Virus record (IMG/VR): IMGVR_UViG_2534681774_000039
Source of the DNA: a virus
Taxonomy: Duplodnaviria > Heunggongvirae > Uroviricota > Caudoviricetes
Direction: 5' to 3' (one strand)
Length of the DNA: 11,760 nt
In this document: positions 1,037-10,338 of the stretch, piece by piece
How the letters are laid out: every line of letters starts with the position of its first letter
How positions within the stretch are numbered: the stretch's first letter is position 1
Program-made: the position numbers and the translations under genes
Notes under the pieces: model-generated
The model's database searches: none
Told to the model about the DNA's origin: nothing
Seen by the model: only the letters and a program-made list of their open reading frames with translations

Positions 1037-1090
1037 TTTGCTCCAAATAGCTAAGGCTATTGCTTAGTAAGTAAAACAGTTGAGGTTGCC

Positions 1091-1630
1091 ATGAATCCGT
1101 TTAACGCCATTACTTTTGCTGCATTGTGCGGGCCTCTGGCTTGTCCTGCTGCTATGGCGCAGGAGTTCATCATCCAGCCAGCCCCTGTGATTGCTAAACC
1201 TTTTGAGTACTCTCCTTCTGTTGAGGAATTCTCACGCAAAATGGAAGAGGGTAAGGAGATCTTGCAAAAGTTAACAATTGCAGCAGATGACTACTATATC
1301 TGTTTGATTGATCTTAATAGCCAAGATGCTCGCGAGTTTGTTTCCAAAAACGGGACAGATACGACAGAGGCATGCGAAATGTTCCTGCGTGCTTTTGAAG
1401 AAGAAGTGAAGCGTACAATTGAATCGCCTCTGCCTGAATTTATCAGGTCAGAACTGAAGGTTTACTGGCGTCATATTGCTAAAGCTCGCTCATCTGTCAC
1501 TCGCCTTAACAATTACATAAAGAGCATATTTAAAGAAACTGTTACTTTTAGCGGGCGCGCGGATCTTGCTGGAATTGCAGCACTAGCTAGTCACACATCA
1601 AATAAGCTAAAATCGATGCAATTTCACTAA
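1091..1630 (+). CDS. Hypothetical 179-aa protein with hydrophobic signal-peptide-like N-terminus (MNPFNAITFAALCGPLACPAAMA/QE); first gene of a two-gene module with the YafO-like gene
   Basis: Good RBS (GAGG, 5-nt spacer) before ATG 1091; 16-nt gap to the downstream gene; no family recognised from sequence. Confidence 0.6.
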   Translation: MNPFNAITFAALCGPLACPAAMAQEFIIQPAPVIAKPFEYSPSVEEFSRKMEEGKEILQKLTIAADDYYICLIDLNSQDAREFVSKNGTDTTEACEMFLRAFEEEVKRTIESPLPEFIRSELKVYWRHIAKARSSVTRLNNYIKSIFKETVTFSGRADLAGIAALASHTSNKLKSMQFH

Positions 1631-3555: not shown

Positions 3556-4067
3556 GCCGCGTTTCCTTCTTTCTTATTAACAATCACACCGTCATATATT
3601 TCATTAAGGTGCCCTCTCAACTCCATGCGCCTTAATGCAGATAACATGTAATCGCATTCAACCTGCTTATTCCCAGTAAATGGCTTATCGTCAGGATTAC
3701 CCCAACAGCAATTACCCCTGGGCCATCCATGTACTTTCCGTACTCTTCCGTTAACAACGTGAAGTAATCCCCAGCCGGGAGGTAAATCCTCAACTGAAAT
3801 AATTTCCGGCTCACTAATAAAGAATCGCCAGTCGCCCATGCCAAGTGAGGGATTTTTACGGAAACGCTTTTTTCTATCTGCCAACAAGTCAGCACGAGAA
3901 CACTTCGCCTCTATCAGGCATGATGCTGAATTTCTGAATCCCATAGCATCTGGCTGTTCTCCGGTACTGGTTACAGCAACAAAGCGGTCATGAAAGCAAA
4001 CCTTGAACCCGTTGCGCTTAAGGAACTTGTACGCAATCTGACAGAGTTCGTGGTGTGTTAACGCCAT
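3552..4067 (-). CDS. PD-(D/E)XK nuclease-fold-like hypothetical protein (171 aa from the internal ATG with AAGGAG RBS)
   Basis: Motif arrangement E(LCQ)...GEQPD...(13 aa)...LIEAKCS fits E...PD...(D/E)xK; strong RBS AAAGGAGAG 6 nt before ATG 4067; the ORF-track start at 4100 is probably read-through into the upstream gene. Confidence 0.5.
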   Translation of the reverse strand: MALTHHELCQIAYKFLKRNGFKVCFHDRFVAVTSTGEQPDAMGFRNSASCLIEAKCSRADLLADRKKRFRKNPSLGMGDWRFFISEPEIISVEDLPPGWGLLHVVNGRVRKVHGWPRGNCCWGNPDDKPFTGNKQVECDYMLSALRRMELRGHLNEIYDGVIVNKKEGNAA

Positions 4068-4068
4068 A

Positions 4069-4617
4069 TCACTCTCCTTTGATGCGAATGCCTGTTGCAA
4101 TGCTGTTTATGATGCTGTCAGTGCATGGGGTAGAAAGCTGGGCATCTCCAGCAATTTTCATGACCTCAACATCTGCATATCGAATACCGAGGTGTATCAG
4201 ACCGGCTATGCCTGACTTAAGCCGAGCATTTTCCATAAATAGAACTTTTGCCCGCTGTTTTTCTGCTTCAAGCTCAACGCGCAGCTTCCCTACCGTTAGC
4301 GCAATATCCTCGTTCTCCTGATCGCGGCTTTTGATGTATTGCAGGTTTCTTTCCTGTTCATCCAGCAGTGCCAGCACGGTAGCCGGGTTAGCCTCTGCTA
4401 TGAATTCAGCGTTTGCATAAGCCTGAGCATCTGATTCAATCAGGCAGTTAACATGACATTCCGCAATCACGCCACCGGGTTCTCCTTTCCATTTTTGGCA
4501 AACAAAAACTCCTGTTAAATTGCCGTGCTGGTTAACAGATGTATGCCCTACGATGTAGCTTCCTTTAGTTGCTTTCTCTGCCTTTTCACGCAGTGCCTGA
4601 TAGTTAATTTGGGTCAC
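4069..4617 (-). CDS. Ead/Ea22-like phage protein
   Basis: N-terminus MTQINYQALREKAEKATKG... and a coiled-coil-rich middle resemble Ead/Ea22-like proteins of lambdoid prophages; ATGA overlap with the upstream gene. Confidence 0.55.
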   Translation of the reverse strand: MTQINYQALREKAEKATKGSYIVGHTSVNQHGNLTGVFVCQKWKGEPGGVIAECHVNCLIESDAQAYANAEFIAEANPATVLALLDEQERNLQYIKSRDQENEDIALTVGKLRVELEAEKQRAKVLFMENARLKSGIAGLIHLGIRYADVEVMKIAGDAQLSTPCTDSIINSIATGIRIKGE

Positions 4618-4838
4618 TCTTCATCCTCCAAGTCGGCAACGGCGTCCATCACATCAGAACCGCGAATAACCTCAAAAGCACGGCAGGCCATTTGAAATAC
4701 CAGTTGCTCTTGCGGATGCGGTGATTCCCAATATTTGAATCCAGGGCGATGCGCGTACCCCATCATTGAATAAAAATCACCAGCAAGCTTAATCGCGGCA
4801 TCAACAAGCTCTCTGTTAGTCATTCTTTTTCCGCTCAC
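4614..4838 (-). CDS. Small hypothetical phage protein (about 74 aa, probable GTG start at 4838 with GGAGG RBS)
   Basis: ORF coupled to its neighbours (GTGA and ATGA overlaps); acidic C-terminus (DLEDEE); no family recognised. Confidence 0.45.
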   Translation of the reverse strand: MSGKRMTNRELVDAAIKLAGDFYSMMGYAHRPGFKYWESPHPQEQLVFQMACRAFEVIRGSDVMDAVADLEDEE

Positions 4839-5446
4839 TGGTTGCCTCCTTTGCGAATCTGTTCCGCCCATTCTTCTAGGGATTTCTCCGCATATTCACC
4901 GGACAGGCCATCAATCGGGTGTGGTTCATTAGCCAACTCTTCTTTCGCTGACAGAATCATGCGTGTAACGTCGAAAACTTCACGTAAAGACTTATTGATA
5001 AATCCGTGATTGAAAGCAGCAGCAAGACGGCTTGCGGTATAGTTAATCCCCTCGTTGCGTGCTTCCGCACGAATTTCAGCCAGGAAAGCATCGGTGGCTG
5101 GAGTTTCGCTGTGGTGTAGGGCATCGTTGATAATCATTGCAGCAACACCAGCCTGCCCTGCATCCGTGACCGACACATGCTCAAGAGTTACGGCCATTGC
5201 GTGTTTCAGCCCCGCATTCTCCGCCGCCAGCGCCGAAAACTTCTCGTGTGCCAACTTAACAGCTGCATCAGCCTGCTTAATTGACTCAATCGCTTTCTGT
5301 TGGTCTTCGGACAGAGCCAAAATCTTGGCCTCCGCTTCAGCAAATTTACGCACCAGATATTCAGCATTTGTTTCATTCACTTTCAGATCTCGTGGTACAC
5401 ATTTCCCGCGAAGAAACCCTTCCATTTCGAAAACATTCATGCGCAT
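4835..5446 (-). CDS. Hypothetical phage protein, alanine-rich / coiled-coil-like (203 aa)
   Basis: Long ORF in operon context; start overlaps the HD gene stop (ATGCGCATGA); no family recognised. Confidence 0.55.
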   Translation of the reverse strand: MRMNVFEMEGFLRGKCVPRDLKVNETNAEYLVRKFAEAEAKILALSEDQQKAIESIKQADAAVKLAHEKFSALAAENAGLKHAMAVTLEHVSVTDAGQAGVAAMIINDALHHSETPATDAFLAEIRAEARNEGINYTASRLAAAFNHGFINKSLREVFDVTRMILSAKEELANEPHPIDGLSGEYAEKSLEEWAEQIRKGGNQ

Positions 5447-6015: not shown

Positions 6016-6065
6016 ATTGCAGCAATCCAGCCCATTTGACATGGGATGATTGCTGCAATTTTTTT
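6016..6065 (+). terminator. Intergenic hairpin (12-bp perfect stem ATTGCAGCAATC / GATTGCTGCAAT, inner CCCA/TGGG tier) followed on the + strand by a T7 run; terminator-like in the + orientation, between rdgC and the HD gene
   Basis: Base pairing checked position by position (6016-6027 with 6048-6059); T-run 6059-6065 overlaps the rdgC stop codon; orientation is opposite to the surrounding operon. Confidence 0.4.
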
Positions 6066-6981
6066 AAGTTGTTGGATTTTGGCTTTTATCTTCTTTGTAA
6101 GAAAGAAGGTCACACATCAAATTAACTACCTTGCTGAATTGGAAAAGGTCAGCGCCAGTCTGATGACGCCACTGGAATGCTTTATCATCTTCATCATTAA
6201 ATGTCTGAGATTGAGTATTGATGCGCGAAAAATGGAAATTTTCGGTAAGAATGAAGGTCACACCGCAACCGGATAACTCCATTTTATCAGCAGTGAAACT
6301 ACTACTAAGACTATCGGCCAGTTCGCTTTGAATTGACTCATGCTCAGCTGAGTAGCGAATAATTTCCTTTTGATCTGCGTAGCGTGATAGCTGAATATAA
6401 TTTCCGACAGTGAATCCTTCAAATGCATTGGCTGCACCATTGATGTAGTTATTCAGGCGTGTAGTCAGTCCATTCTTGATATCACTGATGTTGATTGTTT
6501 CTGTTTTCACTGAACCGACAACCTTAATCAGCATTGCGCATACCATACCAGCTATTATTTTATTGGTTGTGTTGATTACCAATAATTTCTCATCAGTGCT
6601 GTACAATGCAAGAATCAGCGTAGACTTAACAAATGCCTGTTTGCATAGATCTACTCGTACGTTATCAATAATGGCCAGTCGTTCGGCACGCTTTAATTTA
6701 TTCCCGGACATATTTTCGATTGTTTGGATTCGAGAATTAGCTTCTTTCATGACGACATGTCGGGGAATTATTTTCTGATCATGACGGATTACCATTGCGT
6801 ACCCACCAGATATCGGAGTTACCAGTTCACCAGTGACAGGATTCTCTACAAAAGAGGACCGTGAAAATTCTGTTTCCCCGATTTCAGAATAAGGGAGTTC
6901 GAGAAGATGACCTTCAATAGCCTGTATACTAGGTAATGTTGCTCGGTACACAATTGCGTTACGAAATTTTGGTAATTTCAT
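6064..6981 (-). CDS. rdgC: Recombination-associated protein RdgC-like (305 aa from the internal ATG 6981)
   Basis: MKLPKFRNAIVYR... parallels the RdgC N-terminus (MLWFKNLMVYR...), and central blocks (...MVIRHDQKIIP..., ...KLKRAERLAIIDNV...) parallel RdgC as recalled; GAGGAAAA RBS before ATG; the 67-codon upstream extension in the ORF track is read-through into the leader. Confidence 0.8.
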   Translation of the reverse strand: MKLPKFRNAIVYRATLPSIQAIEGHLLELPYSEIGETEFSRSSFVENPVTGELVTPISGGYAMVIRHDQKIIPRHVVMKEANSRIQTIENMSGNKLKRAERLAIIDNVRVDLCKQAFVKSTLILALYSTDEKLLVINTTNKIIAGMVCAMLIKVVGSVKTETINISDIKNGLTTRLNNYINGAANAFEGFTVGNYIQLSRYADQKEIIRYSAEHESIQSELADSLSSSFTADKMELSGCGVTFILTENFHFSRINTQSQTFNDEDDKAFQWRHQTGADLFQFSKVVNLMCDLLSYKEDKSQNPTT

Positions 6982-7015
6982 TCTATTTTCCTCTGCACAA
7001 GATATTAGTTTCTCC

Positions 7016-7104
7016 ACAAAACAGAGAAGAACACCTGCGGTGGCAGCCGCCCGGGTGGATTGGGTTATGAGCCCGTCGTCCGGTGATGCTCTTCTCTGTT
7101 TTGT
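7016..7104 (-). promoter_or_regulatory. Large RNA hairpin in the pL leader: 15-bp perfect stem (7016-7030 with 7090-7104) enclosing a ~55-nt GC-rich loop, about 35 nt upstream of the rdgC RBS
   Basis: ACAAAACAGAGAAGA pairs with TCTTCTCTGTTTTGT, verified by position; the loop contains further short palindromes (CCCGGG, GCGG/CCGC). Confidence 0.4.
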
Positions 7105-7150
7105 AAAAAGAGCGGTACCAGCCGGAAGCAAGTGTACAAACTGGTACCGC
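7103..7150 (-). terminator. Candidate rho-independent terminator within the leftward leader (10-bp perfect stem GCGGTACCAG / CTGGTACCGC, 19-nt loop, then UCUUUUUAC on the minus-strand transcript)
   Basis: Stem and U-tract read directly on the minus strand; the loop is larger than typical, hence moderate confidence. Lies between the pL-like promoter and rdgC, so it would need read-through or antitermination. Confidence 0.4.
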
Positions 7151-7561
7151 CAAAGCAGTGGCTGTTGTGGTGGGGTTGTCACTCAGGTGTATGGTCAACC
7201 TGACAATCCGGTGTCCTCAACGGGGAAAGAGTAACCCCGCCATACTTACCGCCGCGCCATTTCGCGGATTACCACAACGCTGAGAGCACTTAGCCAGTTA
7301 CGGCACCACACTTTGTCGCGGTTCCATAAATGCCCTCATCGTTGCACCCTGGTCTCTTCCCAGGCGTCAAACCGAATCGCCACGCTGGTTAGGCGTCTTA
7401 TCAGCATCCTCATTGACTTGCACATTCCGGCTACCTGGTTTGTTTGCCCGAGCAAGGAGTGGATTGTCCCCTTTAACGTCCCCAGACCGCTAACGACGCA
7501 TGTGCCATACGCCGTGTTACAACCAAATTTTGTTTAATCTTGCCTGTGGCATGTTTCTTTT

Positions 7562-7595
7562 AGATACATTATGTATCTCAAGGGTACATTGTCAA
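7562..7595 (-). promoter_or_regulatory. pL-like leftward promoter (-35 TTGACA at 7595-7590, 16-nt spacer, -10 CATAAT at 7573-7568) overlapped by a 17-bp operator-like palindrome AGATACAT-T-ATGTATCT (7562-7578)
   Basis: Consensus -35, near-consensus -10 and spacing read on the minus strand; the perfect 8-bp inverted half-sites overlap the -10, as expected for a repressor-controlled OL. Confidence 0.45.
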
Positions 7596-7620
7596 GTATA
7601 AAAAACCTGCCGAAGCAGGT
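7596..7620 (-). terminator. Rho-independent terminator downstream of cI (stem ACCTGC / GCAGGT, UUCG loop on the minus strand, then U5 tract)
   Basis: 6-bp perfect stem plus tetraloop and T-run 13 nt after the cI stop codon (7633-7635). Confidence 0.7.
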
Positions 7621-7632
7621 TATAAATATTGA

Positions 7633-8307
7633 TTAGGCCTTTATTTGGTATCTTCTTGGTTTTCCTGAGAAAATTACTGTACCAATTATAGAGCAATTAC
7701 CGTTAATCTTAATGTAAGGCTCAGGCCAGTTTGGGTTTAATGCTTTGAGATAACGCTGTGTTCCATCTTCTATCAATCGCTTGAAGGTGGTTTCGCCTGT
7801 ATCGTGCATCAATGCAATAACGTCGTCACCGTGGCAGGCAGGGACTTCGGGATCAACAAAAATCATGTCTCCCGGGCGGTACTCATCAATCATTGAATCA
7901 CCAATCACCCGCAAGATATAAGTCATTTCGCCACAGGGTACAGGGCAGGGATAAGTTTCTGCTGTGCTCAAATCAACCTCAGAATAGCCAACTTCTTTCC
8001 ATGCTCCGGCCTGTACCCATGATATGACAGGGACTAACGTTATTTGTTTGTTAGTAATTGAAACATCAGGTTTTTTTGTGATGTTTGTTGTCTGGTGTTC
8101 TTGATCAAGCCATCCGACAGGCAGGTCGAAACATTTTTCGATGTGCCGTGCCATGCTGTCACCGATATTTTTAGTAGCACCATCTCCCATAAACCTGCTG
8201 GTCTGGGTTGGCTCGCGATCAATCATGGTGGCAAAGGAAGAATTCCCGCCAACACCATCTCTCAGTTTTCTGGCGTTAGACCGCCGGATGTCATGGACTG
8301 TTTTCAT
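7633..8307 (-). CDS. cI: cI-like prophage repressor, N-terminal DNA-binding domain plus C-terminal LexA-like S24 autopeptidase domain
   Basis: C-terminal domain shows a candidate Ala-Gly cleavage site (WVQAGAWKE), catalytic Ser motif GDSM, and a Lys in ...TTFKRLIEDG... resembling the LexA ...FTVKRLKKQG... block; position and orientation (divergent from cro) fit an immunity repressor. Confidence 0.8.
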   Translation of the reverse strand: MKTVHDIRRSNARKLRDGVGGNSSFATMIDREPTQTSRFMGDGATKNIGDSMARHIEKCFDLPVGWLDQEHQTTNITKKPDVSITNKQITLVPVISWVQAGAWKEVGYSEVDLSTAETYPCPVPCGEMTYILRVIGDSMIDEYRPGDMIFVDPEVPACHGDDVIALMHDTGETTFKRLIEDGTQRYLKALNPNWPEPYIKINGNCSIIGTVIFSGKPRRYQIKA

Positions 8308-8397: not shown

Positions 8398-8598
8398 ATG
8401 AAAGCGTATTGGGACTCTTTAACCAAAGAACAGCAGGGCGAGTTGGCCGGAAAAGTTGGCTCAACACCAGGCTACTTACGGCTAGTTTTCAATGGTTATA
8501 AAAAAGCCAGTTTTGTGCTGGCTAAAAAACTTGAGCAATGCACGTCAGGTGCAATTACGAAATCTGACTTAAGACCGGATATCTATCCGAAAGATTAA
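8398..8598 (+). CDS. cro: Cro-like small HTH regulator (YdaS-like)
   Basis: 66-aa protein MKAYWDSLTKEQQGELAGKVGSTPGYLRLVFNGYKK...SDLRPDIYPKD; GGAGG RBS 8 nt before ATG 8398; the ...LRPDI... C-terminal block recalls Rac YdaS-type Cro proteins; first gene of the rightward operon. The 167-aa ORF-track version (8095..) is an upstream read-through that overlaps cI. Confidence 0.65.
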   Translation: MKAYWDSLTKEQQGELAGKVGSTPGYLRLVFNGYKKASFVLAKKLEQCTSGAITKSDLRPDIYPKD

Positions 8599-8629
8599 CA
8601 GAACACCTTCAATTTTTAACCACAGAACG

Positions 8630-9193
8630 ATGAGGCTAACCGTGGGTAAGCATCACTGGAAAGTAGAAAAACAGCCTGAGTGGTACGTGAAAGCTGTCAG
8701 AAAAACTATCGCGGCGTTGCCGGGGGGTTACGCTGAAGCTGCTGAGTGGCTGGATGTAACAGAGAACGCTTTATTCAACCGCCTTCGTGCAGATGGCGAT
8801 CAGATTTTCCCGCTGGGATGGGCAATGATTTTACAGCGCGCGGCTGGCACTCACTACATTGCGGATGCTGTCGCACAGTCTGCTGGTGGGGTGTTTGTAT
8901 CGCTTCCTGAAATTGAGGAAGTAGAGAACGCCGATATAAACCAGCGCCTGCTGGAAGTCATCGAACAGATCGGGAGTTACTCAAAGCAGATTCGTTCGGC
9001 AATCGAAGATGGGGTCGTGGAGCCACACGAGCAGACAGCAATTAATGATGAGTTGTATCTGTCAATTTCGAAGCTCCAGGAACATGCAGCACTGGTCTAC
9101 GAAATCTTCTGCGCTCCAGAAAAGAGTGACGCCCGCGAGTGTGCAGCTCCGGGCGTCGTGGCGTTTTGTGTCTGTGGAGAAACTAACGCATGA
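8630..9193 (+). CDS. CII-like / YdaT-like phage regulatory protein (start may be GTG 8642, which has a better RBS)
   Basis: Block ...AEWLDVTENALFNRLRADGDQIFPLGWAMIL... parallels the ...TLRNKLNPEQPHQFTPPELWLL... block of the Phage_CP76 CII family as I recall it; sits in the cII position after cro. Confidence 0.55.
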   Translation: MRLTVGKHHWKVEKQPEWYVKAVRKTIAALPGGYAEAAEWLDVTENALFNRLRADGDQIFPLGWAMILQRAAGTHYIADAVAQSAGGVFVSLPEIEEVENADINQRLLEVIEQIGSYSKQIRSAIEDGVVEPHEQTAINDELYLSISKLQEHAALVYEIFCAPEKSDARECAAPGVVAFCVCGETNA

Positions 9194-9792
9194 ACAGTTT
9201 AACGGCAAATAACCGTTTGTCGCAACAGCTGGTGGTCAGTGTCGCTGAACACCTGTTGTTACGGCATGAATGCAGATTACCAAATCACCTGGCTGTAAGT
9301 AACCACAGAGAACTTTACCTGACTGTGGGGGGCGAGTTGTGCAGGAACTTAACCGCTGGTTTCGTGACGGAAGAGGGCTTTATGTCCATGTTATTCGTTG
9401 GGAGCCAGAAACACAGCGCGTTATCTATCTTCGCAAAGACTACCCGCATGAGTGCTTTAGTCCTTTGTGGAAATTCAGGCGTGATTTTGTTGAGTGTGAA
9501 GGACCACCAGCACATTGATTCTGCCATTCCGGGACGTTACACTGTTCAGGCACCTTATAAAGCGGGTGCCGGGATTGGCGTCCTGGAGAAGGCTACCGCG
9601 TACAACCGCGTAGATGCGGTTTTTTTGTACGCATTATTTTGTCACGCCCAAATTATGGTGGGGCGTACAGGGGCATCGCAAGATGCGCCGGTAAGGGTAG
9701 CCGCCGGTAACGCCAACTCTGTACGTCTCACCACCTCTATGATTGGCGTCTTATGTGGTGAGTTTTTTAAGCTTGCTACCGAGGCTGCCATT

Positions 9793-10338
9793 ATGGCTAC
9801 GATCCCAACCTTTGTTCACCCTGAAATCACGATCATCAATGGTCGTGCTGTCACTACATCTCTTGCAGTTGCTAACTACTTTACTAAACGGCATGAGCGG
9901 GTTTTAGATAGAATTCGAAACCTTGAATGCTCCGCTGAATTTGCTGAACACAATTTTGTGTTAAGTGGTTATATCGACGCTTCAGGCCGCAAACTACCTT
10001 GCTATCAAATAACCCGCGATGGCTTTGCGTTTCTTGCTATGGGTTTCACGGGTAAACGTGCTGCCCAGTTCAAAGAGGCATACATCAATGCCTTTAACCA
10101 GATGGAGAAACAGCTTTCAAAGCCCTCTGTACCGAGCGACGTTACACATAACGCCAGCGTTCTCTATTCCTACATTTCATCAATTCATCAGGTCTGGTTG
10201 CAGCAGCTTTATCCCATGCTGGAAAAAGCTGAATCACCGCTGGCTGTAAGTCTGTATGACCGAATTAACGATGCGGCATTTCTTGCCCGTCTTATTCATT
10301 CGTCGCTGAACTCTTCAGAGGTAAGGGGGCGCAAATGA
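9793..10338 (+). CDS. rha: Phage regulatory protein Rha family (Rha domain at N-terminus when started at ATG 9793); the same frame is stop-free back to ATG 9190, so a longer 382-aa product cannot be excluded
   Basis: ...ITIINGRAVTTSLAVANYFTKRHERVLDRIRNL...ITRDGFAFLAMGFTGKRAAQFKEAYINAFNQMEKQL matches the Rha-domain signature as recalled; GAGG RBS 9 nt before ATG 9793; stop overlaps the next start (ATGA). Confidence 0.7.
   Translation: MATIPTFVHPEITIINGRAVTTSLAVANYFTKRHERVLDRIRNLECSAEFAEHNFVLSGYIDASGRKLPCYQITRDGFAFLAMGFTGKRAAQFKEAYINAFNQMEKQLSKPSVPSDVTHNASVLYSYISSIHQVWLQQLYPMLEKAESPLAVSLYDRINDAAFLARLIHSSLNSSEVRGRK

Follow-up and report, generated by a model that had tools for sequence, protein, structure and literature searches.

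Which element controls the early-left operon of a lambdoid phage that has neither an N gene nor a nut site? The question is raised by IMG/VR record IMGVR_UViG_2534681774_000039, a stretch of 11,760 nucleotides (nt; hereafter the window) from a virus of the class Caudoviricetes, which is the immunity region of a lambdoid prophage. Between the predicted leftward early promoter pL and the first early-left gene, an rdgC-like gene, lies a leader of about 580 nt (6982-7567; the modules described below are on the minus strand) at the place of nutL and N. An initial annotation had called this region poor in open reading frames (ORFs) and dense in hairpins, and had proposed that either a cis-acting RNA in the manner of the HK022 put elements or an uncharacterised structured RNA takes the role of an N protein. 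Here we describe the leader as a chain of separately conserved RNA modules: a pseudoknotted RNA of ~170 nt (module C) continued by a hairpin domain (P6), a tRNA-like element (module B), a DicF-related terminator hairpin and a second long hairpin (module A). We give about an even chance to the reading that these 580 nt are a cassette transcribed from pL, which would serve as a polycistronic precursor of stable RNAs with tRNA-type processing sites and built-in attenuation.

Module C, a conserved pseudoknotted RNA downstream of pL

The core of module C (7345-7516) was matched by covariance model R1 with 134.5 bits (E = 5e-38), a match that is partly by construction, since the window sequence is included in the R1 seed alignment. 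In the direction of pL transcription, the core opens with helix P1 (7514-7507/7501-7494, loop GGCAC) and continues with helix P2 (7490-7483/7437-7430, enclosing a variable domain), the invariant junction GGUAGCCGGAAUGUGCAAG (7435-7417) and a variable hairpin, P3, located between this junction and P4. Helix P4 comprises 4 bp (7396-7393/7385-7382), and its loop (7390-7387, AACC) pairs with 7373-7370 (GGUU) to form a pseudoknot. Helix P5 (7364-7360/7352-7348, loop GAAGAGA) completes the core.

An alignment of 35 representatives at no more than 94% identity yielded the consensus CGGCRUAU[GGCAC]AUGYGCCG for P1, CCUCG[GAAGAGA]CGAGG for P5 and YUCACCA for the P4 loop, the CACC of which pairs with a downstream GGUG. 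The family is defined by the P1 loop GGCAC, the word AGCGGUC, P2, GGUAGCCGGAAUGUGCAAG, the pseudoknotted P4 loop and the P5 loop GAAGAGA, all of which are present in the window, the pseudoknot as the compensating variant AACC/GGUU. Across the 35 sequences, 97.7% of the pair cells are paired, as compared to 24-46% when the partners are slid by one to three columns, and 12 pairs are changed on both sides (84 cells). The covariation score amounts to 0.247 versus 0.111 in shuffled alignments, none of 500 shuffles reaching the observed value. Three G-U pairs (columns 12:22, 34:98 and 35:97) are fixed in 34-35 of the 35 sequences; on the other strand they would be A-C mismatches, which places the RNA on the pL-sense strand. 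In addition, about 45 unpaired junction and loop nucleotides are invariant across lambdoid, P1-like and epsilon15-like phages. RNAalifold also proposed an alternative long-range pairing, GCACAU/AUGUGC, which involves invariant bases only and may represent a tertiary contact between loop and junction. The complete pL-sense RNA of 581 nt folds better than 100 of 100 dinucleotide shuffles (z = -3.6).

Module C represents a new structured RNA family. A search of the leader with Rfam 15 returned nothing at the gathering threshold and matches at chance level at E<=10, and when the window and nine diverged loci were searched at relaxed thresholds, no family recurred at the position of C. A full-text literature search for the invariant 19-mer retrieved no paper. 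The Rfam comparison suggested in the initial annotation disclosed no known family; the alignment of homologues revealed conserved structure with compensatory base changes, in line with the idea of an uncharacterised structured RNA put forward there. Two further resemblances were considered and dismissed. A hammerhead ribozyme was suggested by one Hammerhead_1 match directly after the C core of a single locus (L065, 384-430, plus strand), which remained below threshold (28.7 bits; gathering 34), did not recur in other loci and probably arose by chance. Likewise, Rfam lent no support to a likeness that GGUAGCCGGAAUG and CAACGAUGAG might have to group II intron domain V, RNase P RNA or SRP RNA.

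The leader provides little room for a protein. On the minus strand its longest ORF has 39 codons, apart from one ORF of 71 codons with a TTG start that crosses the borders of two separately mobile modules; ORFs of 64 and 74 codons are present on the plus strand. Six candidate leader ORFs gave no Pfam match at E<=1, and across 35 diverged homologues of the C core every frame is interrupted somewhere. Indels in these homologues are not multiples of three, and several homologues carry stops in all six frames across the core. A search of the early-left proteins against PHROG families detected no N-like family in the window, and the spacer of 31 nt between cro and cII (8599-8629) holds no boxA-like word, as the initial annotation had noted. 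Pfam, frame and PHROG tests accordingly agree in placing an ORF-poor region where nutL and N would be expected, without a protein-coding gene, N-like or other, identifiable by homology, and lambda-type antitermination via N and nut was discarded as an explanation. As far as the sequence shows, the same applies to antitermination by boxA and Nus factors, which came to mind through CGCUCUUUUUACAA at 7113-7100 and a UGCUCU in the tail of P6. Words resembling GCTCTTTA occur eight times in the whole window as compared to 9.65 expected, which is chance level; the context of the U-tract differs in L154, L095 and Qin, the boxA-like word at 7106-7113 is not kept in homologues, and the P6 tail is variable past GUGCUCU. 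Finally, ARAGORN found neither tRNA nor tmRNA in the window.

Hairpin, tRNA-like and DicF-related modules in the leader

Past P5, most copies of C continue as YAAC-N-(G)AGAGCAYU and end in the tail AGUGCUCU-N-CGUUGUGG. In the window this domain forms the irregular hairpin P6 (7275-7344), in which CAAC (7344-7341) and GAGGGCAUU face AAGUGCUCUC and GUUG (7278-7275); its helix was read directly from the sequences. The tail is found in 19 of the 35 representatives and in each of them runs straight into either a true tRNA or a cloverleaf-like element with the outer stem GUUGUGG/CCACAAC.

The element that follows in the window, module B (7164-7278), is of the latter type. It can be drawn as a tRNA-like four-way junction, consisting of a 7-bp acceptor-like stem (GUUGUGG, 7278-7272/CCACAAC, 7170-7164) and three hairpins. 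Among 14 diverged copies 92% of the pairs are formed, versus 40-58% with slid partners, and five pairs are changed on both sides; covariation support is weaker for B than for C. Homologues of module B include the 115 nt that immediately precede dicF in the Qin prophage of E. coli K-12, which are unannotated in NC_000913.3, as well as a segment of P1 that lies just after Pban and overlaps the 'dicF-like region' of that record. Further homologues were detected in about 50 viral contigs. In Qin (L136, 2190-2380, about 1649190-1649380 of NC_000913.3), B is preceded by an equally unannotated P6-like helix, AAGCGCAUGG/CCGUGCGCUU, and the two fill part of the 340-nt gap between ydfC and dicF. At the position of B, locus L101 carries a tRNA-like element of 127 nt (1077-1203, minus strand) that contains a long insertion and has kept canonical D and T arms. 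It scores 43.9 bits on the Rfam tRNA model without being called by ARAGORN and links the true tRNAs to the degenerate cloverleaf modules. Another locus, L019, has a tRNA-like element about 60-170 nt after the C core, whose anticodon-like loop CUUUUAA is that of tRNA-Lys(UUU). One may speculate that this element is a decoy for anticodon nucleases.

Module B is directly followed by a hairpin with an intrinsic terminator (7105-7154; UUUGGCGGUACCAG...CUGGUACCGC). Its stem (7150-7141/7121-7112) is a perfect inverted repeat of 10 bp and leads into UCUUUUU (7111-7105). In the alignment, this hairpin (7154-7105) and DicF of K-12 both have the word UUUGGCGGUAyCAGUUU and a C/U-UUUUU tail. Its position, directly 3' of B and with a terminal U-tract in a repressor-controlled early operon, is also that of dicF in Qin and of the corresponding hairpins in ~50 viral contigs. 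The Qin locus lacks the C core. Unlike DicF, the window hairpin has a loop and a 3' arm of its own, and the DicF 5' seed UUUCUGGUGACG is replaced by AGCCACUGC. The Rfam model for DicF (RF00039, gathering 48 bits) gave no match within 6900-7700 at E<=10, and counterparts in L103 and L065 scored 22.7 and 19.5 bits, respectively. In pPE4, L154, L095 and phiV10 the equivalents have different stems that still pair through compensating changes and are followed by CUUUUUA. The phiV10 cassette ends in a strong terminator (14-bp stem and CTTTTT), and that of pPE4 likewise ends in a DicF-like terminator. A simple scan of the minus strand from 7100 to 2100 revealed no other strong intrinsic terminator. 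We also considered an antiterminator pairing of GCGGUA in B with the 3' arm of the terminator, which is unconvincing with 6 bp against the 10 bp of the terminator itself.

The second P6-like hairpin, module A (7014-7104), has arms at 7104-7080 and 7040-7016 with 15 bp of perfect stem and the tail GUUUUGUGG, and it ends 20-30 nt before the ribosome-binding site of the rdgC-like gene. Its helix is kept by compensation, for example with CACAC/GUGUG instead of CAGAG/CUCUG in L101, L140 and L152, and the 5' half of A shares 80% identity with the P6 domain of L068. Similarity to other phages breaks off at 7005, which is 24 nt short of the rdgC start codon, and A is therefore independent of rdgC. The initial annotation had pointed out the 10-bp hairpin with its U-tract and the 15-bp stem of A. 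Both exist as described; they do not stand isolated, being two members of the chain, and neither the relation of the former to DicF nor that of the preceding segment to the element upstream of dicF in Qin had been recognised.

A mobile cassette in lambdoid, P1-like and epsilon15-like phages

Comparison by megablast and blastn with phage records and complete E. coli genomes revealed that the leader is a mosaic. The stretch 7005-7534 recurs alongside other immunity regions, 7005-7172 is found alone in SfV, SfII and ST64B, and 7156-7278 alone in Evi, PPompW prophages and pPE4. The epsilon15-like phages phiV10 and TL-2011b share segment 7272-7515 with about 83% identity, and P1, P7 and RCS47 share 7351-7528 with 77-80% identity. 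None of these recurring stretches carries a credible annotation. In six of eight mapped loci, the C core was followed by the P6 tail, a tRNA or tRNA-like element (T-loop or B loop) and a DicF-like hairpin in this order, four of the six also matching the pattern of the closing U-tract. Likewise, B and DicF, or a DicF-like hairpin with U-tract, form one unit in Qin, P1 and ~50 viral contigs. Coding sequences for hypothetical proteins have been annotated across tRNA, DicF-like, B or C modules in phiV10 (L004, 2672-2923, plus strand), Ayreon (L001, 3036-3230 and 3332-3451) and mEp460 (L271, 3536-4089), and are probably spurious.

Module C is widespread in Enterobacterales. By blastn, 1833 of 5426 complete E. 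coli genomes contain it, and none of the matches listed has an annotated feature at the position of C. The matches include 554 places on plasmids, presumably P1-like plasmid prophages. When viral contigs were scanned with the invariant 19-mer GGTAGCCGRAATGTGCAAG, at least 120 loci were recovered. The corresponding scan across species, each represented by one genome, gave 24, namely 22 named Enterobacterales, including Escherichia, Citrobacter, Klebsiella, Kosakonia, Enterobacter, Erwinia and Buttiauxella, and two contigs of metagenome-assembled genomes labelled Oscillospiraceae and Bacillota. Searches with R1 found one copy in the window, with no diverged second copy in its pR operon, one copy in each of the other loci except L030, and none in HK022 or Qin. 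Locus L030 harbours two full copies in tandem (3997-4154 and 4804-4959, minus strand), ~800 nt apart, and is the only multi-copy locus of 136. The copy in L049 shows changes at otherwise invariant positions and looks degenerate.

The genomic neighbours of C differ between phage groups, and with respect to nearby tRNA genes and promoters C invariably points the way it does on the window minus strand. In about a dozen lambdoid loci among the 35 representatives, a cI-sized ORF (about 220-240 amino acids) lies on the same strand 110-170 nt upstream of C. Where the upstream sequence was read (eight lambdoid loci), C starts about 0-45 nt past the promoter that follows the cI-type repressor gene, and in the window it begins ~45 nt past the predicted pL start. 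The first genes downstream of lambdoid C are ordinary early-left genes (Ea22-like, ParB-like, YfdQ-like, RecE-like), none of them N-like. Similarly, 26 recurrent clusters of downstream ORFs from 103 C-bearing loci included no N-like protein among the 25 commonest of 55 matched PHROG families.

In P1, RCS47 and SJ46, C is oriented like the ban operon and occupies the site immediately ahead of ban, 14 nt beyond tRNA-Ile/Met(CAU). In P1, Pban is followed by a DicF-like terminator, and C lies 2.3 kb further downstream. In this phage (L003, 2950-3000 and 5290-5460, minus strand), the ban leader opens with module B and the strong terminator GCCCAUCUUCGGGUGGGCGUUUUUU ~180 nt past Pban, so that ban expression would need read-through of this terminator, and C is followed by AUUUUCUGGUGAUGAC, which resembles the DicF 5' seed. 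In epsilon15-like phages and a Klebsiella phage, C does not share the strand of the terminase and portal genes and is succeeded by tRNA-Arg(UCU) on its own strand; in phiV10, TL-2011b, SPN1S and the Klebsiella phage ST512 this tRNA starts inside the tail CGUUGUGG, at its GUGG. In L073, a ribosome-binding site comes at once after C. Finally, L092 and L036 have a promoter region, C and a bidirectional terminator between genes of the other strand. With a terminator directly behind it and neighbours in opposite orientation, C can stand alone as an RNA gene. In these two loci (L092, 3125-4160), the segment that separates cI from the early-left genes comprises C, the terminator and a reverse ORF of 152 codons for a membrane protein. 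It has the direct repeat ACCGAGCCTGATGTGGTGAAAAGACAGGCA on both sides and looks like a moron-type insert.

The window leader is embedded in an immunity region. The cI gene (7633-8307, minus strand) was assigned to a PHROG of transcriptional repressors, and cro (8399-8598) and a cII-like gene (8630-9193) lie beyond it. A terminator scan found the intrinsic terminator of cI 12 nt past its stop codon (hairpin 7621-7604, minus strand, AACCTGCTTCGGCAGGTT and a T-run). As the initial annotation had it, a leftward promoter lies right after this terminator, overlapped by a 17-bp palindrome: pL (7562-7595) matches the consensus at 11 of 12 positions (-35 TTGACA, 7595-7590; 16-nt spacer; -10 CATAAT, 7573-7568), its -10 hexamer is overlapped by AGATACATTATGTATCT (7562-7578), which is likely an operator, and transcription is predicted to start near 7561. 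The words AGGGTACA, CAAGTAT, TATGTAT and GGTACAT are common to the pL region and the cI-cro intergenic region, which fits a repressor-controlled pL with oL and oR bound by one repressor. Homology to phages of other immunity types ends at ~7534, indicating that pL belongs to the immunity module. On the far side of the leader, the Shine-Dalgarno sequence AGAGGAAAA and ATG (6979-6993, minus strand) introduce the first early-left gene, which encodes an rdgC-like recombination-associated protein (6064-6981, minus strand; phrog_724, E = 4e-77). It is followed, according to PHROG assignments, by genes for a 5'-deoxynucleotidase, Ea22-like proteins, an exonuclease and an excisionase.

Outside the leader, a few further features were observed. 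The early-left operon appears to be cut past the excisionase gene (2108-2407), no integrase was seen in the window, and its left end (1-698) comprises ORFs that resemble IS1 InsA and InsB, as identified by eye from the translations. Downstream of cII, 9550-9738 on the plus strand matches the Hfq-binding RNA isrK (60 bits) and C4 antisense RNA (68 bits), both above the Rfam gathering thresholds. This pair suggests that the pR operon contains an antirepressor control module of the P1/Gifsy type. It is located within an ORF of 382 codons (9190-10338) that was called mechanically and whose N-terminal half is probably not coding.

Processing, attenuation and antitermination as possible roles of the cassette

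How might such a cassette work? We propose that the pL primary transcript carries, in this order, the C core with P6 (~240 nt), B, the DicF-related terminator hairpin and the second long hairpin ahead of rdgC. Module B and the long hairpins would serve as punctuation to be cut by tRNA-processing enzymes and probably also by RNase III. RNase P would cleave at the 5' side of B, and RNase E or 3' trimming would act after B, thereby freeing C and the DicF-like RNA as stable species. Known counterparts would be DicF, which is released in Qin from the transcript of the dicB operon, and the stable RNAs that are made together with tRNAs in phage tRNA clusters. Among the latter are species 1 and 2 of T4, which are co-transcribed with the tRNAs of such a cluster. 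They resemble the present case as structured phage RNAs beside same-strand tRNA genes, whose ends tRNA processing would set; they differ in phage, size and sequence, and the likeness is one of description. In mammals, MALAT1 acquires its 3' end through RNase P acting at the tRNA-like mascRNA structure. There, too, a long structured RNA is followed by a tRNA-like cloverleaf, the 5' side of which would correspond to the cleavage site, but the system is eukaryotic, cleavage at B is putative, and the parallel is an analogy only. Most pL transcripts would then stop at the DicF-like terminator (7105), and the read-through fraction would express rdgC and the remainder of the early-left operon. With partial read-through at 7105, the cassette would provide a built-in attenuator in a phage without N protein. 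Finally, the folded C RNA would act on a conserved host partner, possibly in trans. That C is a product in its own right is suggested by its stand-alone occurrence in L092 and L036 and by its position downstream of the ban-leader terminator in P1.

Several observations weigh against this scheme. Module B is called as a tRNA neither by ARAGORN nor by the Rfam tRNA model and has no T-loop motif, so that RNase P cleavage at B is an analogy and not a result. Moreover, the CAAC/GUUG stem of P6 competes with the acceptor-like stem of B for the same GUUG, which could point to a switch rather than to simple punctuation. A simple scan did not find a sigma-70 promoter upstream of C in phiV10. The start, ends and stability of the RNA are predictions from the sequence. 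Lastly, C lies in most lambdoid loci within 5-45 nt of the pL start, like putL, which is where a cis-acting antiterminator needs to be.

The last point leads to a different interpretation, namely that C takes the place of N as a cis-acting RNA for processive antitermination, put-like in action but unrelated to put. Nascent C would fold, bind the RNA polymerase that has just made it, carry it past the DicF-like terminator and render it resistant to Rho in the untranslated leader. It would thereby solve, from the same pL-proximal position, the problem of terminators and Rho on untranslated RNA that lambda N-nut and rrn boxA solve, in a window without N-like protein or boxB and with boxA-like words at chance frequency. 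The put RNAs comprise ~70 nt in two stem-loops and act in cis on RNA polymerase without protein factors, mutations in the zinc-binding domain of the beta' subunit blocking their action (PMC9378689). Module C has in common with HK022 put that it is structured, encoded in cis on the sense strand just past the early promoter and ahead of terminators, in an N-less lambdoid phage, and no N-like family was detected in the window or among the commonest families downstream of C in lambdoid loci. The mapped loci have a same-strand terminator between C and the first gene, in L092 even a terminator and a reverse moron separate C from the early-left genes, and the many invariant unpaired nucleotides would suit a conserved macromolecular partner such as RNA polymerase. 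Yet C resembles put neither in sequence nor in structure: it is a ~170-nt RNA with five helices and a pseudoknot, is fused to tRNAs or tRNA-like elements and extends to P1-like and epsilon15-like phages. Read as membership of the put family, the proposal of the initial annotation did not hold up. Model R2, built from putL and putR of HK022, recovered these with 98.7 and 91.8 bits and returned nothing in 6982-7567 at E<=10 with filters off, although very distant relatives could be missed by a model resting on two sequences; conversely, R1 found nothing in HK022. Also, C is present as a single copy and is absent from the pR operon. In P1 it lies too far beyond the DicF-like terminator to carry polymerase past it, in epsilon15-like phages it heads a tiny unit of a tRNA and a terminator, and its systematic fusion to tRNA-type processing sites suggests release as a product. 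On balance, we regard antitermination by C as rather unlikely, albeit worth serious attention. A broader version is put forward tentatively, that is, C would be a new class of RNA that acts through its fold and not by base-pairing, either as a polymerase-modifying antiterminator family structurally unrelated to put or as a new ribozyme or ligand sensor linked to tRNA processing.

A riboswitch-like attenuator, with C as the domain that senses a metabolite, a second messenger or a tRNA and adjusts the passage of transcription into the RNAs and genes beyond it, appears improbable. As is usual for riboswitches, C combines a compact pseudoknot and invariant junction nucleotides with a 3' region that varies, a few copies are directly followed by a terminator (L036, L092) or a ribosome-binding site (L073), and the tandem copies of L030 and the competition for GUUG would suit this idea. 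However, the window terminator is located ~200 nt past where C ends, separated from it by an entire folded module, we found no alternative pairing that joins C to the terminator, the downstream genes have no common function across loci, and no known riboswitch class matches. Even less credit is due to the view that the region is decayed or selfish DNA, made up of tRNA-gene remnants, dicF loci and recombination scars, in which hairpins matter solely as recombination boundaries. The mosaic of pieces found separately in other phages, degenerate-looking copies of C and the resemblance of B and its relatives to tRNA derivatives would be accounted for, but compensatory changes keep the helices of C, B and A across the three phage groups at 77-83% identity, and the invariance of unpaired nucleotides and the constant orientation add to the covariation that disfavours decay. 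Least credible of all is a small protein, be it an N of diverged or non-canonical form or one of the hypothetical proteins in the records of cdtI, Ayreon and mEp460. Database records and the two plus-strand ORFs could be cited for it; the lack of Pfam matches, ORFs that span independently recombining modules, non-triplet indels, six-frame stops and a substitution pattern of paired RNA speak against it. A non-functional remnant and a coding region together receive a very small share of our confidence, the remaining weight being left to something else.

DicF, phage tRNA genes and RNA-based antitermination are known already. What is new here is the family of C, the tRNA-like element that is conserved upstream of dicF, and a cassette that is mobile across lambdoid, P1-like and epsilon15-like phages. 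For N-less lambdoid phages, a previous study speculates on put-like RNA without describing these elements (PMC12315714), and they are not described in the work on put (PMC9378689) or among the Pas small RNAs, which are encoded in late regions (bioRxiv 10.64898/2026.05.13.724894).

Taken together, our data place dicF within a wider modular cassette of C, a hairpin domain, a tRNA or tRNA-like element and a DicF-like hairpin, and the conserved tRNA-like element directly upstream of dicF in K-12 suggests a tRNA-type route for formation of the DicF 5' end. Several annotations of hypothetical proteins over this region in phage records are probably spurious. Roughly one in three complete E. coli genomes carries module C, which is also present in P1 and in phages of Salmonella and Klebsiella and has neither annotation nor Rfam family. 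It is a candidate for early-left control in a large set of lambdoid phages without N, among them Stx2-converting phages; if the antiterminator version holds true, C would replace N in this group and serve the ban operon of P1 as well. Its function is amenable to direct tests in tractable systems such as P1, Ayreon and Stx2c lysogens, and could prove to be categorically new.

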